From a virus, in IMG/VR virus record IMGVR_UViG_3300002835_000148: a stretch of DNA of 64,000 nucleotides; one strand, given 5' to 3'. The notes below the pieces were generated by a model that was not told the DNA's origin, searched no databases, and saw nothing but the letters and a program-made list of their open reading frames with translations. Each line of letters starts with the position of its first letter. Position 1 is the first letter of the stretch. Position numbers and translations under genes: made by a program. This document shows, in pieces, positions 31,401 to 64,000 of the stretch.

Positions 31401-34400
31401 TTCTATGATCGCGCTAACATGGAACCCGTTACTCATGCTGAGGAGGTTTTGCAAATCGGCGGTCTAGTGTTCGCTAAAAATCCTACCTATGCCCCAGCAA
31501 GCAAATTCCTTTTCTCCGGTAGGGGCAAAAACCCAGACAAAGGAGTGCTCTCCTTACCAATACAAGAGTTCGAGTCAGCAACAGATGCTAAAGACCTGCT
31601 GAACAGATACGTCAAAATAGCTACGGATTCTCGCCTACATGATCTTGCTAAGACGTATTTAACATCTCCTCATATTGCGGCAGCCAAGGTTACATTCTTC
31701 AAGCAAGGAGACAAGATACCGCGTAATGTTAAAAATGCCTTTGATGCAGCCAAGGCGGGTGCAGTTACCGTAGTGGGCGAAGATGGTGCTCATCTCTATT
31801 TCAAAGCAGATGATCCTAACGTTTTCCGCGAAGACAACGTAATCCACGAAGTCACCCATGCTTTAACTGAGGCAGCTCTGGTGCGGAACCCATCTGCACG
31901 GGCGGAGCTAACAGGTCTATCGGACAAAATAAGTCGCGTACTTCATTCCAACAACCCAAAGTACGGGAAATTCTGGGATGACATAATAGGCAAAGACCCT
32001 AGTGAAACGCTGGCATACAGCTTGACTTTGCCTTCTTTCCGACAGGTTTTAAGCAAGTACGACGAAGATGGGCATAGGCTGAAAGCTAAGCCTGCTGCAT
32101 TTAAGGGCCAAGCACCTGTACGCACCCTGTGGCAGAAATTCGTTGACACTCTTACAAGATTATTCGGCTTACCCAGCAAGCAGAAACAGGCGTATGACAC
32201 TGCACTAAACGAGTATCTCGACCGCAAAGCAGAGTACGAAAAGCAAGTTGCTGACTACAACGCCCAGCGCCCAATGCAGGCTAAGCTGGATAGCATCCTA
32301 CAAGAATTGCTAAAAACTACTGCGGCTGAAGGCGTTGCTATGCCTAGCGACACCGCTGTTAAAGCAGTTTACGCAGGAAAGAGCGCTGTTGGCGCTGACT
32401 TAGGCAAACTTGAGGAAGCTGAAAAACGAACCACTGCTGGAGAAAGCGCCCAAAAAGTCCGTAAGGATACAGGCTGGTTCAAAGGCACGGAGGGCGAATG
32501 GCGTTTTGAAATTCCAGACGACAAGGCTGAATGGGCGACAGACTGGGAAAAAATATCGGAAGCATCTGTAAGAGGCAAAGGGCTTCGTCTTGAGGATGTA
32601 CTAGACGCTCCTGAATTATTCGCTGCTTATCCTGAGCTAAAGGGGGTAAAGTTCACTAAGCGCCCTGCCCTGTTTGACTTTTATGACGAGAGTTTAGGTT
32701 GGTTTGACCCTGCAACTAACACTCTAAACGTGACACCTAACAACCTTTCTGCTGACGCCGCGCTCGGCACTGCCCTGCACGAAATACAGCATTGGGTTCA
32801 AACAAAGGAGGGTTTTGCTCGCGGCGGCAATAGTAATTCGGTGCGCTTAAGCAACATAGATTCCTTAAATAAGCTAGCAAAATACTGGGCACGCAGCGCC
32901 CCCTCTAACTATGACGCGCTCAATGCACTGGCTATGGAAGAGCAGGGTGTGCCCTTTAGTAAGGTTAAAAGTCGTTACAACAGAGAAGATATGGTAGCTA
33001 GTGTTTTTTACGCTAAGCCTTATGACGAACTCACTGAAGCGCAGCAGCAAACTGTACGCAATAGTGCTAGCGCTAAAGCATTACAGCGCGAATTTTTAGC
33101 TTACGAGAGGGAAAAGACCGCCCCGATTGAAGAGCTTAAGGAAAATGCTGGTAAAAACGCTGCTTTATACGAAAGGGTTAACAATGCTGAAACTACGGTT
33201 AAGCTGCTAAAAGAGTATATTGCTGATAAGAAAAGAGAGTTTAAGGGCGCTTACGATACCTCAGTAAAAGCTCGACAGTATGACCTTGCTGGAAAAATCG
33301 AAAGCACGCATAAAGCCGAAATAGAAAAGCTGGAAACTTCCCTAGATGAGAAGAAAGCAGAACTAATAGAGGCAACCGATGCCCTTAACGACTTTACTAG
33401 CCAATTCGCTGATATTCAACACGCGCTGTATAAGCTCCTAGCTGGTGAGCGAGAAGCGCGAGATGTCGCAGGGCGGCGCAAACTGACTGCTGAGCAGCGC
33501 AGAGAGAGTGCCCCCTATACAGCGGAGGATATTAGGGAAGATGAGGCTATAATCGTAACAGGTGCTGGAGCAGATGCCGCTAGAGTAATGTCTCGACAAA
33601 CCCCTAGAGGGCAAAGAGGATTAGCAGGCAAGCTAAAGGACAAGGACTTTGGCGAAAAACTTTCAGAAGCTGCGCGTGACGTTCTTACATCAGGGCGGCA
33701 TACTTCTTTGCGTAGTGAATGGCTTGACCAGTCTGAAGCATTGGGCAAGGTTACAGAAAACCTGCCTACTATGGTCGGTAAAAAGGCCCGTGTTGATTTC
33801 CTAGCTAGCCATTTCGCGCAGGTGGGCAATGTCATTGCTGACTCTATCCATAACGGATTCGTAAAAGATGTAGGCGACGGCTCTGTGATGACGATTAAAG
33901 ATCACAGTTTAGCCCCAGAGAAGATATTCAGGCGAGTAGCTGAGACAGGCAAAAAAGAACTGTTCAACGAAATGCTGGTAGCACTTAGAGGTCGATCCAT
34001 ACGCGAGGCTGACATAAAAACCAAAGCCCTTGCTGATGATCTGCTGACTAAAGCAGACGAGCTGGATGACTATGCTAGCACTCTACAGGACAAGAAGAAG
34101 CGAGCGAGCTTCACTCGGTCAGCGCAAAACCTTCGCACTCTTGCTGAGAAAAAGCTAGAGGGTATCAACTATGATAGAGGCCGCACCGAAGTCTCTGAAG
34201 AGGATATTCGTAAAGCAGAGGAGCTAGAACGCGCCGAGCCTGAGTTGGCCCGCGAAGCACAAAACGTCTATGACCTGCTGAGAAAGTCCGTTGATCTTCT
34301 CGAAGATAGCGGATTGATAGATTCTAAAACAGCCAAGCAGTATCGGGAGTACCCTAACTACATACCTCTGTACAAGGTGCAAGACTTTGAAGAGGCTATG

Positions 34401-36308
34401 ATTGACCCTAAAAAGCACCTGCAACTCATCATCAGCAAAATGGGTAGAGGTGCAAACAAACTGCCTGAGATAAAGCGGCAGAAAGCTCACTTCCATGAGG
34501 TTATGGTAGAGAGTAACATTCTCAAGCACATCGCACTGTGCACCATGACAGCAGCTAAGAACAATCTCAACAAAGCCGCAGCACTACAGATGGAACTCGT
34601 GGGTGCAGCAGAGCCTAGCAGATTAGGTAAAGACGATCCTGATGCTGTGCAATTCCGTGACAAGGGTGAGGTTAAATACTACACCATCAAAGATAAGCAG
34701 GCGTTGTTCGCTTTGCAAGCCGCGCAGCCTCTAATCAATCCTATCTTCAAACAGCTTAAGAAAGTATCAGGCGTCGTGCGCGGCGCTATGGTTATGAACC
34801 CGCTGTTCTGGTATCGGCAGTTGGTGCGTGAGCCACTGACCGCTAGCCTTGTTGGTAGAACAGGGTTGGTGACGCCTTTTGATACTCTTGCTGAAATAAC
34901 CAAGATAGCCGCAGGTAAGTCCAAGCGGTATGAAGACCTGAAGCGCAGAGGCATAGTCGCAGCACAGGACGTTATCACTGACCCTATAGAGTTCATCAAA
35001 TATGTCGAGAAAGGCAAAGGCTGGACAACCAAGGGCATCGAGCGGATTAAGGAAATACATGAAGCGGTGGACGGTGCTACTAGAGCGGTGGTTGCTGAAC
35101 GCGCATATCAAGATGCTATCAGTAAAGGTCTCAGCGAAGAGGATGCGAATAATCTGGCGGCGATAAAAGCACGGGAGATTATCAACTTCTCCAAGCAGGG
35201 TAGATCACAGAATGTTCGGGTCATGAGGGCCACTACGCCTTTCTTCGGCGCTGCGCTAAACGGTTTGGATGTACTGATGAAAGCCGCCATGCCTAGAAAA
35301 TACGGGCGGTTGAGCAAAGCTGAAGCAATGGAAGCTAGACGTATGTTCTACTCTCGTGCGTCTATGATAGCGCTGTACACCGCAGCTTACACTATGGCAA
35401 GTTCAGATGATGAAGATTATCTGAGCACTGTAGACCGCGCTGGTAATTGGCTGGTGCCGATAGGTAATAAGGACAACCCCTTTACCAAAATATCTATCCC
35501 CTACGAATTGGGCTTCTTCATTAAGACGCTGCCTGAGCTTATTACGCTCCTGAACATGGGGGCTATCTCTACTAAAAAGGCCGTAACAGAAGCGGGCAAA
35601 GCAGCTTGGGAAACGGTGGTTCCCCCTATGCCGACTATCTATGCAATCAAACCCTTGGTAGAAGCCTTTATAAACTTTGACTTCCATACGCAAAGCCCCA
35701 TAGAAACAGGCTCCGATTCCAGAGGAATGATACACCTCAGAAATAAGAAGGCGGGTGAGCTAACCAAAGCGGTTGCAAGCAAGCTGCACGATGCAGGGAT
35801 AGACCTAGAAACTCTGTCTCCTGATCGTATGGAGCACATAATGGAGGGCTTCTTTGGGCAGATATGGGGTGTGACTCGCGCCGTGTCAGACTATTTTATG
35901 TACGATGGCCCTGAGAAACCTGAGAAGATTCTTTCAGATTTACCCCTGATCGGCGGTGCATTTACCAAAGGCGCTAGGGATGCTGCGGTGAATGACTTCT
36001 ACACGGTTTATAACAATGTTCGAGACCTTGCTGAGAGTGTGTCCAAGTTGGAAAAGGGCGGTGACGTAGATACCCTAGAGAAGCTGCGCGAAGACAAAAA
36101 CTACGCAAAGTACATGAGAGCTAACACCCCGCTAGGCGACAAGATGCAGGCTATGGATAATAAAATGCAGATCATAACGCGCATCGAGAAAGACCCTACG
36201 ATAGACGCTGCGGAAAAGAAACGCAGGATAGACATTCAGAACGAACAGCGCAATACGCTCGCCAAGCAAGGACTGGATATTGCTAGAAAGCTAGGTCTGG
36301 AGTTTTAG
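28413..36308 (+). CDS. Giant polyvalent virion protein (2631 aa): N-terminal lysozyme-like domain and two HExxH motifs
   Basis: AAGAVGNFAQESSG...GLGIAQWRKER matches the recalled phage tail lysozyme family. HEVTH is at 31845-31859 and HEIQH at 32778-32792. Long helical and charged regions fill the rest. No T7-like RNA polymerase motifs were noticed. Confidence 0.65.
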   Translation: MDKYAGLASLFDPSVGSGDAALDELIGIRPYTAKEREEDKRRELADIEAYMGGEARPMQGDGEQNLAYARRYLEAKGFPAHIAAGAVGNFAQESSGISGGSLNKEGGLGIAQWRKERLYGGGGYEGLIPFAKRQGRSPQDLTTQLDYFVSELQGPERAALEKAMQTRTPEQAAVILGRYYERPNEQYANYENRAAQARRFAAIPDEQIQNAPSGMYLDVTGGRPFQQRQGQSPQYSQLETTPMQLSTGQTINVEKGMTHAEVAAMLKKEGIEGVPLRQFQAPNGQTVNAEYDMSDDEVLGMLRKEAPEYATPQGAPTPNKSSYGAAAKESLLTSGAGIFTGLGGETKELGKAVADTELLGQYAKPIGEAITGAGESMRGYGEELGHRAEGVFEMPKDASWFEKTVGYPIVQTGAGIVPYAAAYAIPGVGPATGTAALYGGAMGGLEERAKETGKEFVPSEARPYAVGETALDYVGGRLLGPLKKLFSDDVVLGARETIIKAVEKGGIEEAKKLVGSRLGNIAKQVGITDAAFTSSEVAENVIERAYAGQPLFDDSALQEYADTAKQVAGFGGVAGVAQGLGRHHIKATEVARIEEQKATEEALAAQKAAQLAQQTALEEQAVAKAEKRKERQPIEIPEELQGMPYKDAVRYMQMQEAKAQPPVEEVPEPTVQEKPYYEQLGLKARKNTLVMKGLKQLNPDDPSHGPTINAFLDEIEAKNMPRDQQAIDALRTKLNEVQQNAQQVSETGPTDGSGGAQPSVLEEGGDQTISGEGMEPSRQGEQDVEVDDEEPTEKVKAVAEEVPTGMVNPREFMHYKDVTKRTAELTQAAEQLAAGEITKEDYAALVNKYKPVTAYRSIPKPASLEEMYNALSKDKVDKIGEASGTLEEGENIGLRLDIPAYRDHGAWVVTVHTPRRGGFAGKPIGYESVAGATDVSFGITEKAALNIAKGSGKATIATMEGKWKPVSPEEAATLGKQYLNDPEWIQVGMDPERHSYFYDRANMEPVTHAEEVLQIGGLVFAKNPTYAPASKFLFSGRGKNPDKGVLSLPIQEFESATDAKDLLNRYVKIATDSRLHDLAKTYLTSPHIAAAKVTFFKQGDKIPRNVKNAFDAAKAGAVTVVGEDGAHLYFKADDPNVFREDNVIHEVTHALTEAALVRNPSARAELTGLSDKISRVLHSNNPKYGKFWDDIIGKDPSETLAYSLTLPSFRQVLSKYDEDGHRLKAKPAAFKGQAPVRTLWQKFVDTLTRLFGLPSKQKQAYDTALNEYLDRKAEYEKQVADYNAQRPMQAKLDSILQELLKTTAAEGVAMPSDTAVKAVYAGKSAVGADLGKLEEAEKRTTAGESAQKVRKDTGWFKGTEGEWRFEIPDDKAEWATDWEKISEASVRGKGLRLEDVLDAPELFAAYPELKGVKFTKRPALFDFYDESLGWFDPATNTLNVTPNNLSADAALGTALHEIQHWVQTKEGFARGGNSNSVRLSNIDSLNKLAKYWARSAPSNYDALNALAMEEQGVPFSKVKSRYNREDMVASVFYAKPYDELTEAQQQTVRNSASAKALQREFLAYEREKTAPIEELKENAGKNAALYERVNNAETTVKLLKEYIADKKREFKGAYDTSVKARQYDLAGKIESTHKAEIEKLETSLDEKKAELIEATDALNDFTSQFADIQHALYKLLAGEREARDVAGRRKLTAEQRRESAPYTAEDIREDEAIIVTGAGADAARVMSRQTPRGQRGLAGKLKDKDFGEKLSEAARDVLTSGRHTSLRSEWLDQSEALGKVTENLPTMVGKKARVDFLASHFAQVGNVIADSIHNGFVKDVGDGSVMTIKDHSLAPEKIFRRVAETGKKELFNEMLVALRGRSIREADIKTKALADDLLTKADELDDYASTLQDKKKRASFTRSAQNLRTLAEKKLEGINYDRGRTEVSEEDIRKAEELERAEPELAREAQNVYDLLRKSVDLLEDSGLIDSKTAKQYREYPNYIPLYKVQDFEEAMIDPKKHLQLIISKMGRGANKLPEIKRQKAHFHEVMVESNILKHIALCTMTAAKNNLNKAAALQMELVGAAEPSRLGKDDPDAVQFRDKGEVKYYTIKDKQALFALQAAQPLINPIFKQLKKVSGVVRGAMVMNPLFWYRQLVREPLTASLVGRTGLVTPFDTLAEITKIAAGKSKRYEDLKRRGIVAAQDVITDPIEFIKYVEKGKGWTTKGIERIKEIHEAVDGATRAVVAERAYQDAISKGLSEEDANNLAAIKAREIINFSKQGRSQNVRVMRATTPFFGAALNGLDVLMKAAMPRKYGRLSKAEAMEARRMFYSRASMIALYTAAYTMASSDDEDYLSTVDRAGNWLVPIGNKDNPFTKISIPYELGFFIKTLPELITLLNMGAISTKKAVTEAGKAAWETVVPPMPTIYAIKPLVEAFINFDFHTQSPIETGSDSRGMIHLRNKKAGELTKAVASKLHDAGIDLETLSPDRMEHIMEGFFGQIWGVTRAVSDYFMYDGPEKPEKILSDLPLIGGAFTKGARDAAVNDFYTVYNNVRDLAESVSKLEKGGDVDTLEKLREDKNYAKYMRANTPLGDKMQAMDNKMQIITRIEKDPTIDAAEKKRRIDIQNEQRNTLAKQGLDIARKLGLEF

Positions 36309-44575: not shown

Positions 44576-47272
44576 TTAAAAATAACTCTCTAACTTCTTC
44601 ATTTTGAATGATAAATTATCTCCGAACCCGCACTCGGCGTCCAGCGGTATGTTGGGCAGCCACTCTGGAGGTCTACGAAGCTCCTCTACAATAAACTTCA
44701 TAGCTTCTAGTGATTGCTCGGTCGGTACAATACCGTAGAGCGCGTCATGGATAGTCAGCCCGACAGGGTACTTCTTGTGTACTCTTACCATAGCCTCGCC
44801 CATCACGCACCTAGCCAATGCCTGAATGATATTCTGAAAGCATTTGGCGGCGTGTATATGCACTGGCCCTTTGCGCGTTTTGTACACCCATTGTAGCCTG
44901 TTCGAGCTATCCATAGAGGGTGTCAGGTCATTATAGGTCATATACAAATTGGAAGGTAGCCTGATGCCCCGCGCTCCGATAACTTTCAGCGATAGCGCTC
45001 CTAAACCAATGTCGTATTCTTCATTTTGTGCAATCGCGTACAGCGCGTTACCTGCATCATGCCAAGCTTTTTTGACCATATAGTAATCATCTCGGTAAAT
45101 TTCTACGACTTTTTTAGCAAATGTTTCTCCAATGTCCCTACCGGATAGCATCTTGATTTGCTCACGTAATTTCACATGGCCTGTGCCATAGATCAAACTT
45201 AACTGACAGTTATGTACAATTATTGGGCCGGAATCAGTCAAGATCGTAAATCTGTTCCTCGGCCCGGCGCAAAGCAAGTCGTAAACGGGCAATCTCCGCC
45301 TCAAGCTCACTGATTTGGCGCTTGTTTCTGGTATTCTCCGCTCTGGAGATAAACCTAATGTTGCCCGGTTCGTAATTACCATTATTGTCGATGCGATCCA
45401 TGTCAAACTCTGGAACATCCCAACCATCAAGTGTTTGCGCGTGCGCGAGAAACTGCGCTTTATCCATGCGCCATAGTGCGTACACCGTGATGCCTCGGCC
45501 CCCATAGTTTTTATAGTTGCCGTCTTTGGTGTTATGGCAGCGGTTAATTGCTGCGGCGATTCGGTTAAGCAACCTACGCCGATGCTGGTCATTAGGCATG
45601 GCTTTGGTGTAAGCCCAGAACCTTTTAGTCCGACCTGCTGTAAGCCCGCATTGATGGCATCTAGTGCTTTTGAAGTCTTTGAAATTATGCTTATCCACAG
45701 TGTATTCAGGGAGGCCGCAGTCGCATTGGACAATAAGCGCGGCAACTCCCCCTCGCGGGCCTTGAATGTAGCCTGTAACGGTAAGTTTGCCGCTCCTATA
45801 CCCAATGCTTGGGAGAGGATGGACGCATCTGAAACCACTGATTGACTTTCCAACCACTGAGTCCCTGACCACACTAGATGATCCGGTGTTAACCAACTCC
45901 CGCAAAGACTCAATGTTTCTTTGTAACCTTTCGACACTAATCCTTGGTGGCATACCCACTCCTCCCCATCCCATACTTTGTCTGACAAAGAAACCGCTTC
46001 AATCGGCTTCCATCCTGAGTAGCATAATACTAGAGTTCCCTCGGCAATACAAGTTTTTCCAACGAAGCGCTGCTCGTCTGTGACATCTGCATATCTTATG
46101 TTAAACGCTGATGCAGCAAAGTCTTTATACAGGTCAAGCCCATCGCCCAGCATCTCTAGCTTATCCATCTGCCCAGCAAAGTACAGGCCCACACGCAGCT
46201 CGATGTTAGACAAGTCAGCACCCACTATGCTATAGCCCAAAGGCGCGACGATAGCCTTCTTTAGCGGAGAAGTGCGAGGCAAATTCTGCAGATTGATTGA
46301 GTCCACTGCCGACCAGCGCCCTGTGATCGCGCCATAGTATTTTAGAGGTACAGGTAGCGAACCACTCTCTTCTGCTATGCGAATGAAGCGCTCTGTGCGG
46401 GTTTCTTCGAGTGTGCTCTTGACGCCTAGCCTAGCAGCAACTACAGCCTGTACACTGAAATTATCATGCTCCAGCAGTGCTTTGAACTCTGCATCACTCT
46501 TGGCAAAAGCGTAGGCAATCTTGCCCGTTCGCGGGCTTACTTTCACCGGAGGTGTAACACCAAAACTTTTAAGCACTTCCGCCAGCTTCGGGTTCGACAT
46601 CAAGTCTTCTTTAGCAATACCGCTCTCTATAAGCAGGATTGTTTTCCTACCACGCACATCCGTTAAGTGCTCGTGTAACAGTGCGGTGTCTAGTTGAAAT
46701 TGTGGCTTTGTGTGCATCTTGATCGTCATGTCGATCAACGCAATTTCCGACTTGATAAATGCTGGGGCTAGTCGCTTGAACAACTCATAGGTTAGCTCTA
46801 CGTCATTCTTGCAGTATTCCCCATACGCCTTTAACTCTAACTCTGCGAAATCTGCACGGCGTTTACCCATAGCAAGGACAACTTCTTCACCCTTTACCCC
46901 TAGCTCGTAGCGTTCAGCTAGCGCTTTGAGCGATCCACCTGCGTCAACACCATGTACGGCGCGGGCCATAGACAGAGTATCGAGTATCAGCTTAGGGTGA
47001 ATCCCGAACCGCCACGCTAGAATAGACGCATCAAACAGCGCATTGTGAGCCAGCATAAACGCATTGGCCCAGTCAAAACAACCAAGCCAGTCCCTAATTT
47101 CTTCATGCGTTCCGCTAAACCATGCTGCCGGTTCATCGTTCTTCTTTACTGCAACGCCGATAGTTTCATATCGTTCGTCATCTACGTAGCTCTGAGTCGT
47201 TACGTCTTTGCGTGATAAGCTGTACTCTTTGCTATAGTAGGTTTCTATATCCACCGTAAACATATTTAGCAT
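44576..47272 (-). CDS. Family A DNA polymerase with 3'-5' exonuclease domain, interrupted by an intein
   Basis: Exo motifs VDIET, HNALFD and YCKNDV. Pol motif A is DLSNIELRV. Motif B, RFVGKT|intein|CQLSLIYG, is split by the intein. Motif C is TIHDAL. Confidence 0.9.
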   Translation of the reverse strand: MLNMFTVDIETYYSKEYSLSRKDVTTQSYVDDERYETIGVAVKKNDEPAAWFSGTHEEIRDWLGCFDWANAFMLAHNALFDASILAWRFGIHPKLILDTLSMARAVHGVDAGGSLKALAERYELGVKGEEVVLAMGKRRADFAELELKAYGEYCKNDVELTYELFKRLAPAFIKSEIALIDMTIKMHTKPQFQLDTALLHEHLTDVRGRKTILLIESGIAKEDLMSNPKLAEVLKSFGVTPPVKVSPRTGKIAYAFAKSDAEFKALLEHDNFSVQAVVAARLGVKSTLEETRTERFIRIAEESGSLPVPLKYYGAITGRWSAVDSINLQNLPRTSPLKKAIVAPLGYSIVGADLSNIELRVGLYFAGQMDKLEMLGDGLDLYKDFAASAFNIRYADVTDEQRFVGKTCIAEGTLVLCYSGWKPIEAVSLSDKVWDGEEWVCHQGLVSKGYKETLSLCGSWLTPDHLVWSGTQWLESQSVVSDASILSQALGIGAANLPLQATFKAREGELPRLLSNATAASLNTLWISIISKTSKALDAINAGLQQVGLKGSGLTPKPCLMTSIGVGCLTESPQQLTAAITPKTATIKTMGAEASRCTHYGAWIKRSFSRTRKHLMVGMFQSLTWIASTIMVITNRATLGLSPERRIPETSAKSVSLRRRLPVYDLLCAGPRNRFTILTDSGPIIVHNCQLSLIYGTGHVKLREQIKMLSGRDIGETFAKKVVEIYRDDYYMVKKAWHDAGNALYAIAQNEEYDIGLGALSLKVIGARGIRLPSNLYMTYNDLTPSMDSSNRLQWVYKTRKGPVHIHAAKCFQNIIQALARCVMGEAMVRVHKKYPVGLTIHDALYGIVPTEQSLEAMKFIVEELRRPPEWLPNIPLDAECGFGDNLSFKMKKLESYF
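45209..46051 (-). mobile_element. Intein (281 codons) in DNA polymerase motif B
   Basis: Begins CIAEGTLVL. Block B is LTPDHLV. It ends VYDLLCAGPRNRFTILTDSGPIIVHN, followed by a +1 Cys. Confidence 0.85.
45234..45953 (-). CDS. Homing-endonuclease-like protein nested in the polymerase intein, in a different frame
   Basis: GGAGGAG lies 5 nt before ATG 45953; the ORF track opens at 45974. The protein has QCDCG...CHQCG and the core YKNYGGRGITV...MDRIDNNGNYEPGN. Confidence 0.75.
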   Translation of the reverse strand: MPPRISVERLQRNIESLRELVNTGSSSVVRDSVVGKSISGFRCVHPLPSIGYRSGKLTVTGYIQGPRGGVAALIVQCDCGLPEYTVDKHNFKDFKSTRCHQCGLTAGRTKRFWAYTKAMPNDQHRRRLLNRIAAAINRCHNTKDGNYKNYGGRGITVYALWRMDKAQFLAHAQTLDGWDVPEFDMDRIDNNGNYEPGNIRFISRAENTRNKRQISELEAEIARLRLALRRAEEQIYDLD

Positions 47273-47760
47273 ATGCCTTTCTCCTGCATAAACGCCCTAA
47301 CTATTGCTTCCTTTTCTGGGCTTAATCTGGCGCAATTAAAGCCTTCTTTGTCTTTGTGCCTTACTCGCCAAATGTAATGATGCGCGGTCATTGTCTTCAC
47401 ACCCATGAGGACGCCTAATTCCCATGCCATAGTTTTAGCATAGTTGCGATTTCGCGCCTGTGTTTGTCGTGTAGCCCAACAGCAATTATCAGGGCTGTAC
47501 CCTTTGTTTACATCAACTCTTTCTAGTGTGTGCTTGCTCGTAGGGCGTCGCCCCATATCCGATAAGAAATTTTCGTAGAGCAACCATTCAGCTATGACAG
47601 AGATTCCCCGCCCCCCGTAGTGCTTATAATCTACGGCTCTAGTGTTGAAACACCTATTTTTCATCATTTGCCATGAGCGATATTCTGGAGTAGCCACGCG
47701 CCGCCCATTTACGTAGCGCACTTCCCCGCACGCTTTTACAGCCATTACTTTATCAGGCAT
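47266..47760 (-). CDS. Free-standing homing-endonuclease-like protein, paralogue of the two nested ones
   Basis: YKHYGGRGISVIAEW...FLSDMG...LERVDVNKGYSPDNCCWAT shares its core with the ORFs at 41361 and 45234. It overlaps the polymerase start by 7 nt. Confidence 0.7.
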   Translation of the reverse strand: MPDKVMAVKACGEVRYVNGRRVATPEYRSWQMMKNRCFNTRAVDYKHYGGRGISVIAEWLLYENFLSDMGRRPTSKHTLERVDVNKGYSPDNCCWATRQTQARNRNYAKTMAWELGVLMGVKTMTAHHYIWRVRHKDKEGFNCARLSPEKEAIVRAFMQEKGIC

Positions 47761-48067
47761 CCTCCCTCCAATTTTTTAATAGCCTTTGCAGGTCTTCTTT
47801 CAGTGTGCCTAAGCCTGCTTCATTAACGACGAGAGCGCACCCACCAGCAGTGCTTATTCTTTTTAGCTCTCGCTCCTGCAACGCCGTGGTCTTCCCCTTT
47901 CCAGCTTTGCACTCTATTCCAAAAAAATACCCATTCAAACAACCGCATATATCAGGCACCCCACTTTTTCCATAGCCGCCCGTAACAGGGCTAAAATGAT
48001 ATGCTCCCAACTCATCCAAGATTTTCTTAACTACTGCTTTTACTTTAGCCTCTGGCGTAGTTGCCAT
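47753..48067 (-). CDS. VRR-NUC domain nuclease
   Basis: GVPDICGCL...FGIECKAGKGKTTALQ matches the D...ExK core recalled for VRR-NUC. Confidence 0.75.
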   Translation of the reverse strand: MATTPEAKVKAVVKKILDELGAYHFSPVTGGYGKSGVPDICGCLNGYFFGIECKAGKGKTTALQERELKRISTAGGCALVVNEAGLGTLKEDLQRLLKNWREDA

Positions 48068-48081
48068 TCACTCCTCCTTTG

Positions 48082-48312
48082 TTAACCATCACCGCTACCC
48101 TCGCCATCACCGTAGCCAGCACCACTGCCACTACCGTGGCTGAAACTACTACCTATGTCAGTGCCAAAGCCCTCTACCGCTTCAAAGTACCATTCAGGGC
48201 AATCGTTTACACCATCGCCAGCACCAGCGCCATTACCGATACCCCACCCGTGACCACGCCCTGAGTAGTGGCCTGAGTTATCTCCTTCGTTAGTGAGTTT
48301 ATAGGGTGGCAT
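48082..48312 (-). CDS. Gly-rich small protein G5 (76 aa)
   Basis: MPPYKLTNEGDNSGHYSGRGHGWGIGNG... Its ATG is embedded in the last codons of G4 and preceded by GGGAGGTGGGAAG. Confidence 0.55.
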   Translation of the reverse strand: MPPYKLTNEGDNSGHYSGRGHGWGIGNGAGAGDGVNDCPEWYFEAVEGFGTDIGSSFSHGSGSGAGYGDGEGSGDG

Positions 48313-48550
48313 CTTCCCACCTCCCGCTGTAACCGCCCTCACCATCGCCATAACCCGCACCGCCCCCCTCCCCCTCGCCACTGCCCTCGCCAGCGCAGCC
48401 TCCAATACCCCCATCCGCGCCGTCCCCACCGCCAGTGCTATCACCAGCGCCAGCATCATATCCGTAAGTAGATAGATCGCCCCAGCCCCTACCCTGCCCT
48501 GTGCCGAGGCATAAGTTATCTCCATTGTTAGTGAATCTATAGGTCAACAT
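48299..48550 (-). CDS. Gly-rich small protein G4 (83 aa)
   Basis: MLTYRFTNNGDNL...GYSGRWEDATL, with the same junction architecture as G5. Confidence 0.55.
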   Translation of the reverse strand: MLTYRFTNNGDNLCLGTGQGRGWGDLSTYGYDAGAGDSTGGGDGADGGIGGCAGEGSGEGEGGGAGYGDGEGGYSGRWEDATL

Positions 48551-48809
48551 CTTCCCACCTCCCGTTGTAGCCACCCTCACCTGCGCCTCCGCCGGAGCCA
48601 TCTCCATCACCATAGCCATCGGCATAGCTGTCTTCATTGACCTCACAATCACCATTCCCAAAACCGTCGCCAGAGCCACTATACCTGCCGTGACCTATTC
48701 TAACGTGGCTGAGAGTAGCAGCATTACCGGAGCCGTAACCCCATCCCCAACAGCGACCTGAGTCGTGGCCTGAGCTATCTCCTCCGTTAGTAAGTTTATA
48801 GGTCAACAT
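48537..48809 (-). CDS. Gly-rich small protein G3 (90 aa)
   Basis: MLTYKLTNGGDSSGH...GGYNGRWEDVDL. The start lies 14 nt inside G2. Confidence 0.55.
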   Translation of the reverse strand: MLTYKLTNGGDSSGHDSGRCWGWGYGSGNAATLSHVRIGHGRYSGSGDGFGNGDCEVNEDSYADGYGDGDGSGGGAGEGGYNGRWEDVDL

Positions 48810-48996
48810 CTTCCCACCTCCCAGTAGCGCTCCCTCTACCCTCGCCGGAACCACCGCCGAAGCCGTTGCCGTCGCCGTCGCCGTCGCCGTTGCCATAGCC
48901 GTTGCCGTAGCCGTATCCGCTGCCGTTGCCGTAGCCGTGGCCGTGGCCGTAGCCCCATTGGGAATCGTGGTCGTTACTCAGTATCTTAGGGGACAT
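48796..48996 (-). CDS. Gly/Tyr/His/Asp-rich small protein G2 (66 aa)
   Basis: MSPKILSNDHDSQWGYGHGHGYGNGSGYGYGNGYGNGDGDGDGNG...GRWEDVDL. Confidence 0.55.
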   Translation of the reverse strand: MSPKILSNDHDSQWGYGHGHGYGNGSGYGYGNGYGNGDGDGDGNGFGGGSGEGRGSATGRWEDVDL

Positions 48997-49022
48997 AGGG
49001 GTCAATGCCTTCGCTAGTGAGT

Positions 49023-49310
49023 TTATAGGGCATTGTCTTTCCAGCTCCCATCACGACCTCCTCTACCGTTGCCAGAACCCCAGCCGATGCCCACGCCAGT
49101 GCCCAAGCCGGAGCCTCCCACCGCACCGCCGCCGGAGCCTTCTACCCTGCCAGCATCTGTTATGACAGTCCCGTGTGATCGACCCATGCCGTCGCCGTAG
49201 CCGGAACCGGAAAGGCTAATAGCACCGTAGCCATAGCCATTACCGGAAGCAGTGCCGCGCCCCCTGCCATTAGTAGAGCCACAGTCGTTATTCAGTATCT
49301 TAGGGGACAT
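49023..49310 (-). CDS. Gly-rich small protein G1 (95 aa)
   Basis: MSPKILNNDCGSTNGRGRG...GSWKDNAL. ATG 49310 is preferred over the TTG at 49319. Confidence 0.55.
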   Translation of the reverse strand: MSPKILNNDCGSTNGRGRGTASGNGYGYGAISLSGSGYGDGMGRSHGTVITDAGRVEGSGGGAVGGSGLGTGVGIGWGSGNGRGGRDGSWKDNAL

Positions 49311-49593
49311 AGGGGTCAATGCCTACGACAAGTATCGTCTGGGCTGTGCCTGTGCAGGGAATCACTTCAATCACCCCCGTTAGGTAAATATCATCGACGG
49401 TAACAGACAGCTTGGACGAAGTAGCCAAACCATTCTTGCTGATCTCGCTGAGAGTGAACGCACCTTCCCATGACCAGATACGCCGCGCTTGTGTGAGTAC
49501 GCATATGTCCCTATCCAACTCCTCTACGATGCCGACATGAACGCCAGCGCTAACGGTACGAACTACTACGTATTTACCAATGTACTTTTTCAT
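49300..49593 (-). CDS. Hypothetical protein (97 aa)
   Basis: Ordinary composition (VVVRTVSAGVHVGIVEE...ARRIWSWEGAFTL). It lies immediately upstream of the Gly-rich array. Confidence 0.55.
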   Translation of the reverse strand: MKKYIGKYVVVRTVSAGVHVGIVEELDRDICVLTQARRIWSWEGAFTLSEISKNGLATSSKLSVTVDDIYLTGVIEVIPCTGTAQTILVVGIDPYVP

Positions 49594-49853
49594 TCTTCAA
49601 TCTCCACAGTCACAGTACGCTTTACCTTTACGATCTTGCCTGTGCTCAGTTCTCTGGTGTAATGACTGCCAGCCCATGTTACATCAGTGGGATGCTGCAA
49701 GAACTTAGCGCGGATTTTAGGTATGAACTTCACATTTTTTAAAGTGGGGTCTTTCCATCCGCAAGCCGTTTCCCGTCCATCAGCATAGGTCTCACCCCAT
49801 GCCAGTCCATCTTTCATAATCATCACGCCTTCTTCAGTGTGTTCGTATTTCAT
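49590..49853 (-). CDS. Hypothetical protein (87 aa)
   Basis: ATGA overlaps at both ends. Confidence 0.5.
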   Translation of the reverse strand: MKYEHTEEGVMIMKDGLAWGETYADGRETACGWKDPTLKNVKFIPKIRAKFLQHPTDVTWAGSHYTRELSTGKIVKVKRTVTVEIEE

Positions 49854-50164
49854 TCTTCATCTCCTATCCTGTAATGTTTCTCAGCAAAGCAAATCCCAGC
49901 CAAAAAACTAAGCAAGTGTACTCCGTCGTCTCTGTCCCGTAACTCAATGAACCCTTGCAGTCGCTCGTTGCTGGTCAGCGGCTTTCTTTTTGGATTGGAT
50001 ATTGTGTATAGGGGTATATTGTTTTCGCCAAGGAAAGCGCGGATTTCTTCGATTATTGGTGGGCTACGCCAAGGCTGCATACCGCAAAACTCGGCGCATA
50101 TTGTTTCGTCTTGGTCAATCAACTCAGCAAGCGCCCGCCTCAGCAGTTCAACCGGATTGCTCAT
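49850..50164 (-). CDS. Hypothetical protein (104 aa)
   Basis: ATG 50164 overlaps the upstream stop as ATGA and follows GGAGGA. The ORF track starts at 50179. Confidence 0.5.
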   Translation of the reverse strand: MSNPVELLRRALAELIDQDETICAEFCGMQPWRSPPIIEEIRAFLGENNIPLYTISNPKRKPLTSNERLQGFIELRDRDDGVHLLSFLAGICFAEKHYRIGDEE

Positions 50165-50352
50165 TCTTCTTCCTCCCATTCGATACGGACACAGGCTTTT
50201 GGTTTTTGTGTAGCAACTCTATCTCTCATTGCGTCAGCTTGTTCCTTTGTAGGCCAAATACCATTGTTCCCAGCTCCATAGTAATAGACATTCACCCACC
50301 CCTCTTTTTTCACACGCCCTTCTTTTTTCTCGGATTTGTGCTCAGTTCCCAT
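50161..50352 (-). CDS. Hypothetical protein (63 aa)
   Basis: Compact ORF in the operon. Confidence 0.45.
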   Translation of the reverse strand: MGTEHKSEKKEGRVKKEGWVNVYYYGAGNNGIWPTKEQADAMRDRVATQKPKACVRIEWEEEE

Positions 50353-61604: not shown

Positions 61605-62732
61605 TTACCATAGGGGTCTTACCTTTAGTGGGCTGAGTGGGATGAAGTTGGTTTTCTCCCAGTAGTTTACTGGGTCTGCATCGGGTAGCACGTGGCTTCC
61701 GTCTGCTTTTAACTCGTCCACCTTGTTTCCAGCACTGTCTATCACTACCTGCCATCCTGTCGGCTGGCCTATGGGTTTTGTGTTGCTACTGGGTTTTGTG
61801 TTGCTACTGGGTTTTGCGTTGCTACTGGGTTTTGCGTTGCTACTGGGTTTTGCGTTTTCCTGCCCCCACTCATTTTCCTCGCCTCTGCCCCATGCTTCCA
61901 GTGCATCGAGCAGGGTCATCATGTCGGCTTCGTCTATTATCCGCAGGCTCTTAGCGTATGGGGTCTGGTACTTGAGCCAATGCTCGCGTGTGTTGTTTAT
62001 AACCTGTAAGAATGAAGCCGTACTCACACCACCTAACAAGCCCGCATCTATGCTACCGCCACCTAATAGGCCAGCGCCTCCCAAGCCAGTCCCTCCGCCT
62101 ACCAGCCAATTAAATGTGTAGGCACTTTTAGCAGCCTTTTCAGCGCGTTCTGTCGCGCTGTTGCCCTTGTTCCTATTCATTATAGAAGGTAGATACATGG
62201 TAGAAGCACCCTCTGCCCTGAAATCCTGCTTGTGGTCGATGCAGTATTTGTTCTTAACATCCTCAATCAAGGCAGCACTAGGGATAATAATGGAGTGGCG
62301 CACCGTTTCGACGTAATTCACAGCACCCCCATGCGCTTCTACTCCATAGTACGACACTATGCCTTTCCTAGCTGCTATGCCTGCATTACGCATGTTCAAC
62401 GTGTTTTCTGATGCGTACCTTGTGCTTAGAAATTCTCCACGCTGGCGCGTGATGTATACAAGGTAGTCTAGTTCGGGTAGGTAGAGTCCTTCTGGCATGA
62501 ACTCCCGTGTCTTAGCACGAGGGCTTTTCCTTGGGCTTCTTTGGTTGTTTGTGTCGGTGGCGGTGGTGATTTTTATGGGCTGGTGGTTGGTGCTTTGTTG
62601 GGCGTTTTGCTGTAGGTTTTCTATCTGGTGCGTCAGTTTTTTTATCTCATCCATCATCATTGCCACCGTCTTTTCCAGCATTTTTTCACGGTCTTGGGCA
62701 CTTTCGGGGGAGGGGGAGAATTGTGATGTCAT
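61605..62732 (-). CDS. Hypothetical early protein (375 aa) with KPSSN(A/T) repeat and Gly/Leu-rich tract
   Basis: ATG 62732 (MTSQFSP) follows AGGA. The ORF-track TTG start at 62789 is itself a TTGACA hexamer. No family recognised. Confidence 0.55.
   Translation of the reverse strand: MTSQFSPSPESAQDREKMLEKTVAMMMDEIKKLTHQIENLQQNAQQSTNHQPIKITTATDTNNQRSPRKSPRAKTREFMPEGLYLPELDYLVYITRQRGEFLSTRYASENTLNMRNAGIAARKGIVSYYGVEAHGGAVNYVETVRHSIIIPSAALIEDVKNKYCIDHKQDFRAEGASTMYLPSIMNRNKGNSATERAEKAAKSAYTFNWLVGGGTGLGGAGLLGGGSIDAGLLGGVSTASFLQVINNTREHWLKYQTPYAKSLRIIDEADMMTLLDALEAWGRGEENEWGQENAKPSSNAKPSSNAKPSSNTKPSSNTKPIGQPTGWQVVIDSAGNKVDELKADGSHVLPDADPVNYWEKTNFIPLSPLKVRPLW
61773..61857 (-). repeat. 18-nt tandem repeat x ~4.7 (encodes KPSSNA/KPSSNT)
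   Basis: gggttttg(t/c)gttgctact units at 61773, 61791, 61809 and 61827, plus a partial fifth unit. Confidence 0.9.
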
Positions 62733-63025
62733 GGTGAATCCTATAATTAGATGTAACGAATCGTTCTTGTATTTGAAATAACTTGTCAAATTTAGGGGGG
62801 TTGAAAGTTACCGCTCTTACTCGGATATGATGGGGGCGTAAGCGGATTAAGTCAATAGGCTTTTTGTATTTATATTGGATTGGGGGATTGATTGGATTAG
62901 GGAAAAAATAGTGATGTTTATGGCTCTTAATTTTGGTTGTTTTTCAGTGTGAAAGTTTAACCTGTGGATAAAATTAAGGCGTTGATTTGGAAGGAGTTTT
63001 TCGACGGCGATTAAGGAAATGCGCG

Positions 63026-63453: not shown

Positions 63454-64000
63454 CTACTTGCTAGACTTAGCCTTGAGCGCGTCGCCCGCTTTGCGGGTTT
63501 CCTGTTCGCTTTGTATCAAAGCATTTTTTAAGTCCACGTACTTTATGCCTAGGATTCCCGCAGTGTTTTTAATGTACTCGACTGTCAAGGGGTGCCGTTG
63601 AAATTGCAATAGTATCGTGTACCAATGCTCCAGCTCTGATAGCGCGTCCGTGTCGTCTGTTTTGCTTACTATTTTGGATAGTGTTGCGTCCGCATCTTGC
63701 ACTTGTTTTGGTGGGACTTTACCCGCTGGAGCTGGAGCTGGAGCTGGAGCTGGAGCTGGAGCTGGAGCTGGAGCTGGAGCTGGAGCTGGAGCTGGAGCTG
63801 GAGCTGGAGCTGGAGCTGGAGCTGGAGCTTTATCCGCTGATGCCGGAGCTTTATCCGCTGATGCCGGAGCTTTATCCGCTGATGCCGGAGCTGATGCCTT
63901 GCTAACAGCCCTATTGATCGTTTTGCCGTCCCAGCCTATCCACGCTTTTGCCGTTTTTAGCCTATGCGGGTTTAAGTCCGTTGGGATTATTCGCTCTTGA
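63454..64000 (-). CDS. Partial CDS (N-terminus beyond window) with (Pro-Ala)n and SADKAPA repeats
   Basis: The frame of ORF 63454-63702 stays open to base 64000. Read by hand it is ...WIGWDGKTINRAVSKASAPASADKAPASADKAPASADKA(PA)17...GKVPPKQVQDADATLSK... The GTG at 63702 is only the first in-window start codon. Confidence 0.6.
   Translation of the reverse strand, partial: QERIIPTDLNPHRLKTAKAWIGWDGKTINRAVSKASAPASADKAPASADKAPASADKAPAPAPAPAPAPAPAPAPAPAPAPAPAPAPAPAPAGKVPPKQVQDADATLSKIVSKTDDTDALSELEHWYTILLQFQRHPLTVEYIKNTAGILGIKYVDLKNALIQSEQETRKAGDALKAKSSK
63725..63826 (-). repeat. Perfect hexanucleotide tandem repeat (GCTGGA)17
   Basis: Counted directly. It encodes (Pro-Ala)17 in the minus-strand frame. 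Confidence 0.95.
63827..63889 (-). repeat. 21-nt tandem repeat x3 (gctttatccgctgatgccgga)
   Basis: Three exact units encoding the heptad SADKAPA (register arbitrary), read as APASADK in the flanking sequence, on the minus strand. Confidence 0.9.

Follow-up and report, generated by a model that had tools for sequence, protein, structure and literature searches.

Five overlapping glycine-rich genes of a viral contig as a probable expansion of the partner gene of DUF6948, a protein with a predicted Sm-like fold

The present study deals with five small consecutive genes, designated G1 to G5, which are located within a stretch of 64,000 nucleotides of viral DNA (IMG/VR record IMGVR_UViG_3300002835_000148) referred to as the window throughout. 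The genes had been delineated in a first-pass annotation, and reading of the minus strand together with a listing of the open reading frames (ORFs) reproduces all five of them at the same positions as well as the peptide quoted there, which is found within G2. Their coordinates are compiled in Table 1 along with those of the gene directly upstream, encoding a protein of family DUF6948, and of a short relay ORF between G1 and G2. The whole arrangement forms part of a tightly packed early operon on the minus strand with overlapping starts.

Table 1. DUF6948 gene, array genes and relay ORF (aa, amino acids; nt, nucleotides; pI, isoelectric point; E, expect value; SD, Shine-Dalgarno sequence)
Feature	Position	Strand	Length	Leader	Further characteristics
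DUF6948 gene	49300-49593	minus	97 aa		Pfam PF22253, E 5.7e-26; directly upstream of G1
G1	49023-49310	minus	95 aa	MSPKILNND	basic, pI 9.0; orthologues in loci L001, L003 and L005
Relay ORF	48986-49033	minus	15 codons		MPYKLTSEGIDPYVP followed by stop; 11-nt overlap with the G1 stop and with the G2 start
G2	48796-48996	minus	66 aa	MSPKILSND	pI 4.45; most regular (Gly-X)n member
G3	48537-48809	minus	90 aa	MLTYKLTNGGD	14-nt overlap with G2; SD GGGAGG at 48817-48822
G4	48299-48550	minus	83 aa	MLTYRFTNNGD	14-nt overlap with G3; SD at 48558-48563
G5	48082-48312	minus	76 aa	MPPYKLTNEGD	14-nt overlap with G4; SD at 48320-48325

The array proteins share a layout in which a short conserved N-terminal block is followed by a variable Gly-X stretch containing Tyr, Trp, His, Asp and Ser, and lack a hydrophobic core. 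Two types of N-terminus, MSPKIL.N. and M..Y[KR][LF]TN.GD, are present as originally described, and the C-terminal motif G[RS]W[EK]D of G1 to G4 is found as well, followed by three further residues. G5 ends in GEGSGDG directly ahead of its stop codon, and the next gene, which encodes a VRR-NUC/Hjc-like nuclease, possesses an SD of its own 15 nt downstream. Gly accounts for 29-36% of the residues, and between 57% and 87% of the Gly residues have a second Gly at position i+2 (fractions of 0.87 in G2, 0.74 in G5, 0.62 in G1, 0.58 in G3 and 0.57 in G4) compared with 0-30% at i+1 or i+3. Gly-rich segments as strong as those of the array are rare elsewhere in the window. The acidic and disordered composition initially ascribed to the array holds true as far as acidity of G2 to G5 (pI 4.0-4.5, net charge -6 to -10) and predicted disorder, modelled for G3, are concerned, while it does not apply to G1, which is basic with a net charge of +2. 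Within G1 to G5 neither a signal peptide nor a hydrophobic segment was found, the maximum Kyte-Doolittle value over 15 residues being at most 0.92. AlphaFold2 modelling, carried out for G3 alone on the basis of an 11-sequence alignment, leads to a predicted local distance difference test score (pLDDT) of 30.9 with all 90 residues below 50, and the Gly-X proteins are predicted to be intrinsically disordered.

The junctions G2/G3, G3/G4 and G4/G5 consist of 14-nt overlaps, gggaggtgggaagATG, which conform to the pattern GGGAGG-N7-ATG. In this second type of junction, which leads into G3, G4 and G5, the codons of the C-terminal residues G-R-W-E-D (GGG AGG TGG GAA GAT) at the same time provide the SD of the next gene. 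Over 55 nt the three junctions are 75-80% identical versus 50-62% in the gene interiors (repeat family D3), which bears out the earlier observation of conserved junctions between diverged interiors. In contrast, the 14-nt overlap stated for every start is valid for G3, G4 and G5 only, since G2 has its start at 48996, beyond the end of G1 at 49023. Between these two genes lies the relay ORF, a chimeric ORF whose start is of the G3 type and which continues with a copy of the DUF6948 3' end; it is also present in loci L001 and L005. Its 3' half and the start of G2 represent a 44-nt copy of the DUF6948/G1 junction with 95% identity (repeat D5: 48970-49013 versus 49284-49327). G1 itself overlaps the DUF6948 gene by 11 nt, its ATG being situated within the DUF6948 stop region. 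While strong SDs are present ahead of G3 to G5, none is found ahead of G1 and G2. The way in which ends and starts overlap is suggestive of translational coupling.

A profile of the five proteins retrieved six metagenomic relatives whose contigs hold an equivalent array in an equivalent position, with seven copies in L001 and L002, six in L003 and L004 and five in L005 and L008. Comparison of copy number and junctions with related phages, as proposed in the first-pass annotation, reveals that every unit of all four relatives retains its ATG and, ahead of it, a purine-rich stretch resembling an SD (GG[GT]GG/TGG-GAAAG). As the same frames recur in four independent metagenome contigs with five, six and seven copies, the array is real and not a product of chance. 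The degree of conservation differs between members: the interior of gene 4 in L005 is identical in nucleotides to that of G4, for which P0001 is the metagenomic relative cited, and P0003 deviates from G5 by one residue.

Selection was assessed by the ratio of non-synonymous to synonymous differences (pN/pS). For 24 orthologue pairs, which differ at 263, 242 and 354 sites in codon positions 1, 2 and 3, respectively, pN/pS amounts to 0.59 in the Gly frame versus 0.92 and 0.96 in the other two. For an ungapped block of 17 codons, picked by motif and situated beyond the overlaps, the corresponding values are 0.68 versus 1.00 and 0.96. Both data sets agree with the small genes being read in the Gly frame as initially annotated. 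The N-terminal block of the G3 type, derived from 20 members, reads M-x-[TP]-Y-K-L-T-N-x-G-D-x-S-G-(3)-G-x-G-x-G-W-G with T7, G10, D11 and W23 near-invariant and a freely varying middle; across these 20 members the Gly codons vary synonymously. A scan for RNA genes yielded nothing from Rfam except isrG at 19 bits (gathering threshold 100), and a tRNA scan gave no match. The frame-specific selection and the lack of an RNA family or tRNA match lead us to regard G1 to G5 as genuine protein-coding genes read in the Gly frame. Because Gly-rich DNA is free of stop codons in every frame, gene callers often extended the ORFs of the relatives upstream in the wrong frame.

The Sm fold is characterised by a helix at the N-terminus and a strongly bent beta-sheet of five strands. 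The AlphaFold2 model of the DUF6948 protein (pLDDT 94.4, predicted template modelling score 0.86) was compared with the Protein Data Bank (PDB) by Foldseek, and its top 50 matches are without exception proteins of the Sm, LSm or archaeal Sm-like (SmAP) kind, with a probability of 1.0, E-values from 7e-4 and target-normalised TM-scores of up to 0.78. Against a viral structure library, the model matches best with other DUF6948 proteins, and among its weaker matches some are annotated as Sm-like. A search of the PDB with the DUF6948 sequence gave nothing at E up to 1. As only the structure search leads to matches, the Sm fold is supported by structure while family membership is not supported by sequence. 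We thus speak of DUF6948 as having a predicted Sm/LSm fold. Its relatives are numerous and all uncharacterised, and none of the texts found in full-text literature searches mentions DUF6948.

The association of DUF6948 with a (Gly-X)n gene is not confined to the window. Among 81 loci with enough downstream sequence (78 viral contigs and three cultured phages), 80 contain a Gly-rich ORF after DUF6948, the start of which lies between -35 and +39 nt from the DUF6948 stop, with an overlap of 13 nt being the commonest (25 loci). In bacterial genomes and metagenome-assembled genomes of many phyla the pairing occurs in 59 of 63 loci, including Neisseria, Moraxella, Pectobacterium, Sphingomonas, Desulfovibrio, Acidobacteria, Planctomycetes, Cyanobacteria and Saccharibacteria. 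Under a uniform criterion applied to viral contigs and bacterial genomes alike (at least 40% Gly in a 30-residue window, within 600 nt), a (Gly-X)n ORF is present downstream in 107 of 110 loci compared with 8 of 138 for the upstream control. Conversely, when viral contigs were searched for DNA coding for GYGDGSGSGYG, DUF6948 was found directly upstream in 60 of 68 usable matches. From the eight exceptions, one contains a DUF6948 above the Pfam cut-off, one a weak match below it (20.3 bits, E 6e-4), and three more resemble remote DUF6948 relatives.

Cultured carriers of the pair are Ralstonia phage NK-7, whose partner protein is labelled "fibroin heavy chain-like protein", Pectobacterium phage Ymer with its relatives, and Iodobacter phage phiPLPE, whose partner is unannotated. 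The pair is also carried by prophages of Neisseria gonorrhoeae, for which three DUF6948 matches are found in each of two chromosome-sized records which are filed as plasmids in PLSDB. One locus of NZ_CP119142.1 (about 533 kb; L288, 2812-3572) comprises a 158-aa DUF6948 gene, an ATGA overlap and a 95-aa (Gly-Asn/Tyr/Ser)n ORF, and the gonococcal DUF6948 protein occurs on at least 1000 contigs. At the ends of N. gonorrhoeae draft contigs, DUF6948 proteins are in many cases recorded as "partial". The pair is not accompanied by a third conserved gene, as no flanking family is present in more than 13 of 198 distinct loci. In lytic as well as temperate phages it is typically surrounded by early genes and by genes of replication and recombination, often including those for SSB, Erf or RecT.

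The DUF6948-coupled (Gly-X)n class, as defined in this analysis in lieu of a curated model, comprises ORFs which directly follow a DUF6948 gene on the same strand and start within about 40 nt of its stop. G1 starts 11 nt inside the DUF6948 gene, G2 follows the copied DUF6948 3' end, and G3 to G5 continue the overlapping array. The first-pass annotation knew of no family for these proteins, an assessment which has to be revised: the array starts at the DUF6948 stop and would represent a local expansion of the near-universal (Gly-X)n companion of DUF6948.

Pooled, the partner proteins contain 44% Gly, 17% Ser, 11% Tyr and 11% Asp. A median of 93% of their Gly residues obeys period 2, X is mainly Ser, Tyr, Asp or Asn, and the median net charge is -7. 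G1 to G5 are clearly less regular than the class (median 0.93) and richer in Ala, Glu, Trp, His and Cys. The leader of the class is short (median about 7 residues) and follows a loose hydrophobic-x-Asn pattern (MGKVND, MRLTNN, MSRLVNN), which KILNN and YKLTN of the window resemble. In the pooled repeats (loci L008-L090) GGC makes up 73% of the Gly codons and X is mostly encoded by TCC, TAC or GAC, while the window genes use all four GGN codons. The idea that X is limited to queuosine-read NAY codons was dropped, since Ser (TCC/TCT) is the commonest X.

Searches of Pfam, PHROGs, NCBIfam and PADLOC with G1 to G5 gave either nothing or composition-driven matches below threshold (TrAA12, keratin head, phrog_18306), and a PDB sequence search with the G1-G5 profile returned artificial linkers, the SmD1 tail and GR20, none of them significant. 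The sensitive homology search recommended in the first-pass annotation, performed with HMMER against 1.84 billion representatives, delineates a narrow G3-type subfamily of about 8 true clusters. Since the remaining matches are low-complexity noise, the class is untraceable by ordinary homology search.

Some Gly-X proteins carry additional domains. In 13 loci (L169, L177, L179, L189, L202, L214, L216, L217, L221, L229, L230, L239 and L241) a leader and a (Gly-X)n stretch are joined at the C-terminal side to a conserved domain of about 150 aa (...FAHGETL...WHHxLTGSC...), the fusion being situated about 300-1100 nt after the DUF6948 start. This domain matches neither Pfam nor PHROGs and has at least 193 relatives, all of them unnamed. 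In L045, L068 and L087 the Gly-X proteins open with a domain of about 50 aa holding AADWLEE.G, which weakly resembles the "repeat-companion" TIGR02996 (E 0.036, below cut-off). Contigs very often end within the (Gly-X)n repeat, for example in L014, L016, L018, L019, L021, L025, L028 and L031.

With respect to copy number, the lineage of the window is located at the extreme (five to seven). Among 55 viral loci, 39 contain a single Gly-X gene, 12 contain two, two contain three and two contain five. The duplicated unit contained the coupling junction, as is shown by the piece of DUF6948 3' sequence that has remained between G1 and G2, and similar remnants precede the second and third of three Gly-X genes on an unrelated contig (L007/L044). 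In gene 3 of L003, a G5-like N-terminus is joined to a G4 body identical to that of the window; the paralogues therefore recombine. In addition, repeat length varies between near-identical contigs (L027/L028; L030-L033). As judged from these comparisons, the array grew by tandem duplication of units containing the coupling junction, and its members recombine among themselves. G1 to G5 may accordingly be described as a fast-evolving, lineage-specific, five-fold expansion of the partner gene of DUF6948.

Family scans of the neighbouring ORFs corroborate that the array is located in the early/replication arm adjoining nucleases. Deposited phages gave no nucleotide match to the window, and the closest relative of its DNA polymerase, in Rhizobium phage RHph_TM3_14A, shows an identity of at most 35%. 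E. coli genomes yielded no DNA match. The DNA polymerase A ORF (44576-47272, minus strand) spans 898 aa compared with 614-617 aa in L001 and L003. Its tblastn matches fall into two pieces, and the extra stretch of about 280 aa (CIAEGTLV...VHNC) is intein-like. Between the VRR-NUC/Hjc-like nuclease and the polymerase lies an HNH endonuclease gene (47266-47760, minus strand; phrog_374, E 5.5e-36), which is probably a mobile homing-endonuclease insertion, as it is absent in L003 and L004, where a 104-aa nuclease abuts PolA. Repeats are present elsewhere in the window, too. At 63725-63892, a perfect tandem repeat, (GCTGGA) x17.5, leads into an equally perfect one of 21 nt (x3.3), and a putative plus-strand ORF (63617-64000) would read (Ala-Gly)n there. 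An 18-nt x4.7 tandem repeat with 98% matches (61772-61856, minus strand) within ORF 61605-62789 encodes NAKPSS/NTKPSS repeats of a 394-aa early protein. The structural arm contains a single ORF of 2631 aa (28413-36308, plus strand).

We consider it probable, on balance, that G1 to G5 are DUF6948-coupled (Gly-X)n proteins which operate in partnership with the Sm-like protein. Ribosomes terminating on one ORF would probably re-initiate on the next, and with re-initiation at each overlap the Sm-like protein and its Gly-X partners would therefore be made together. The N-terminal block may dock on the Sm-like oligomer, such that the acidic, aromatic Gly-X stretch would constitute a tail delivered as a separate protein. 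This tail could either compete with nucleic acid for the binding surfaces of the ring or confer multivalent, condensate-like behaviour on the complex in early infection. Hfq is autoregulated by its acidic tail, RNA and the acidic residues at the C-terminus competing for the core of the protein, and it is on this acidic-tail competition that the proposed mechanism is modelled. The specific biochemical reading, according to which the Gly-X proteins are separately supplied tails of the Sm-like protein, is put forward with considerable reserve and may well turn out to be wrong. Similarly tentative is the wider notion that DUF6948 and (Gly-X)n make up a "split Sm protein" system, widespread among tailed phages and so far undescribed, whose tails are co-translated as separate proteins. 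Early in infection, the dipeptide-repeat tails of such a system would serve to modulate the binding of nucleic acids or to form condensate-like assemblies. Five to seven diverged paralogues could equip one ring with mixed tails, in a manner convergent with the arginine-glycine (RG) tails of the eukaryotic heteroheptameric Sm ring.

Several observations weigh against the assignment of G1 to G5 as partners of an Sm-like protein. The E-values of the Foldseek matches are modest (about 1e-3), and a search of DUF6948 against the LSM/Hfq models of Pfam yields none of them, the only matches at E up to 1 being DUF6948 itself and a spurious YmiC. G3 to G5 are not adjacent to DUF6948, their link to it consisting in the structure of the array and the shared leader motif [KR][IL][TL]N. 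G1 is basic rather than acidic. Purifying selection is weak, yet frame-specific, and the pN/pS values of the 24 pairs favour the Gly frame because the underlying orthologue alignments were built on it. The skewed codon use across unrelated phages could reflect slippage or a constraint on the nucleic acid, or else translational optimisation. Finally, the repeat in the domain-carrying Gly-X proteins may be a generic linker and not a dedicated Sm partner.

Among the alternatives, the most serious one regards the Gly-X proteins as independent effectors, namely polyanionic nucleic-acid mimics or decoys directed against restriction, abortive-infection or nuclease systems, with DUF6948 being a co-expressed helper or chaperone or even unrelated. 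The acidity and predicted disorder of G2 to G5 would fit such a role, as would their position in an early-gene region with adjacent nucleases, the arms-race-like turnover of length and sequence together with the expansion of paralogues, and the pair of Pectobacterium phage Ymer, which forms a moron-like stand-alone two-gene unit between genes of opposite strand. An independent effector, however, could do without the attachment to the DUF6948 stop that about 97% of loci from many phyla display. Moreover, the array has no PADLOC match and no significant anti-restriction match, since the sole hit (Lar-like, E 0.043) concerns a neighbouring ORF and not an array gene. Hence, we judge this explanation to be unlikely, and improbable is the further one that the repeat acts as RNA or DNA, with the ORFs being incidental, for instance as a (GGC-NNC)n element which is bound by the Sm-like protein in the service of autoregulation or takes part in recombination or replication. 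It would account for the extreme codon bias with its 6-nt periodicity, for three frames being open across the repeats and for the difference in repeat length among near-identical contigs. It is at odds with 80 of 81 loci having a Gly-frame start codon at the stop of DUF6948 despite varying overlap, and with the use of both TCN and AGY codons for Ser and of the full set of Gly codons in the window genes. Besides, these genes have diverged to an extent that only G2 is still a tandem repeat (6/12/18 nt, 48855-48954), while Gly periodicity and N-terminal block persist. In addition, pN/pS falls below 1 in the Gly frame only, and no Rfam match was obtained.

Two further explanations appear highly improbable to us. 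If the array were one gene translated into a polyprotein by programmed +1 frameshifting at each junction, it would be understandable that successive ORFs are each in the +1 frame and that the downstream frame is open for 29-71 codons before each ATG. Yet this out-of-frame sequence is Ala/Val/Met filler, GGGAGG-N7-ATG is kept per unit in all relatives, the lengths of the overlaps vary (11, 14 and 29 nt), a single Gly-X gene is present in 39 of 55 phages, and the stretch ...GAC CTA TAA A... contains, by reading of the sequence, no known +1 slippery motif. The single frameshift-prone gene that the first-pass annotation had named as its own potential refutation is hence unlikely, each unit having its own SD and ATG. 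A conserved programmed frameshift fusing DUF6948 to the repeat was rejected separately, since the overlap classes of the surveyed DUF6948 loci place the Gly-rich ORF in the -1 frame in about 46 cases and in the +1 frame in about 23. To an equally small degree we give credit to secreted Gly-rich antimicrobial peptides or microcins, or to silk-like or beta-solenoid structural proteins of the virion, as suggested by a composition reminiscent of Gly/His/Tyr peptides and by the GenBank label of the Ralstonia phage NK-7 homologue. The analogy with antimicrobial peptides and microcins drawn in the first-pass annotation finds no support, as no hydrophobic segment is present (Kyte-Doolittle below 1), a signal peptide is lacking, and the scanned flanking ORFs match no exporter, immunity or modification family; those at 49300-50179 (upstream) and 47266-48067 (downstream) are DUF6948, nuclease, HNH or of no family, with DNA polymerase A coming next. 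They were inspected with regard to class II microcins and double-glycine-leader bacteriocins, which are characterised by leaders of 15-25 aa with GG or GA at the end, hydrophobic mature regions and linked genes for a C39-peptidase ABC exporter and for immunity. Further points against the secreted or structural reading are period 2, unlike the period 3 of polyglycine-II proteins, the failure of AlphaFold to find a fold and the location of the genes in the early arm on the strand opposite to the structural genes. RTX calcium-binding repeats were discarded as the motif GGXGXDX[LIVWYF]X is absent from G1 to G5, with one DxDxDG being present in G2. A bundle of the polyglycine-II/antifreeze type was likewise dismissed on account of the Gly period and the lack of a confident AlphaFold structure.

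The pairing of DUF6948 with (Gly-X)n genes extends over hundreds of viral contigs, over prophages and binned contigs of many bacterial phyla and over phages of Ralstonia, Pectobacterium and Iodobacter, the partner gene often being unannotated, called in the wrong frame or tagged as "fibroin-like". If the two proteins indeed cooperate, they would represent a new build of an Sm-type nucleic-acid chaperone in which the disordered tail is a separate protein, and would offer a tractable bacterial or phage model for the function of dipeptide-repeat and low-complexity proteins. In practical terms, assemblies of phage metagenomes frequently break at the repeat, and spurious ORFs in alternative frames are called there.

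Several known systems invite comparison. Gly-rich microcins, Gly/His/Tyr antimicrobial peptides and silk fibroin resemble G1 to G5 in composition only, as the latter are devoid of leader or export features, hydrophobic segments, accessory genes and a predicted fold. In bacterial SSB, a core with OB fold is extended by a disordered, Gly-rich linker that ends in an acidic tip, and this tail mediates cooperativity and phase separation. SSB resembles what is proposed for the pair in being a small beta-barrel nucleic-acid binder with a Gly-rich disordered acidic tail, while it differs by its OB instead of Sm fold, by its fused architecture and by lacking a period-2 repeat. Our literature searches, which included phage Gly-rich early proteins and Sm-like proteins with glycine repeats, returned no description of the DUF6948/(Gly-X)n pairing. 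The nearest published item concerns GoF, MotB.1 and Frd.2 of T4-type phages, early proteins with an AlphaFold-predicted LSm-like fold and suspected action on RNA (PMC12152347). They belong to a different sequence family of Tevenvirinae phages, and no Gly-X partner gene is mentioned in the abstract.

Another comparison concerns Hfq, which has an acidic tip in E. coli. Hfq of Acinetobacter and other Moraxellaceae carries a repetitive Gly-rich low-complexity C-terminal extension (PMC5663733). It displays the combination of a bacterial Sm-like ring with a Gly-rich low-complexity extension which is proposed for the phage pair. In Hfq, however, the tail is fused and its repeat is of another kind, DUF6948 stands outside the Hfq family by sequence, and the phage partners of the window lineage amount to five to seven paralogues. 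A further parallel is provided by the eukaryotic Sm and LSm proteins, whose C-termini contain tandem RG dipeptides (PMC3710371). As exemplified by SmD1, SmD3, SmB and LSm4, these likewise combine an Sm-fold core with a disordered period-2 Gly-X repeat. The G1-G5 profile even picks up residues 94-116 of the SmD1 tail, a match which is not significant (E 0.37), and the comparison as a whole implies no homology. In contrast to the eukaryotic proteins, the phage repeat is encoded by a separate overlapping gene instead of a fused tail, and X is Ser, Tyr, Asp or Asn instead of Arg. What appears to be new is that the Gly dipeptide tail of a predicted Sm-type protein would be split off into overlapping genes, acidic and aromatic rather than basic in character, and multiplied, with the function proposed here for it.

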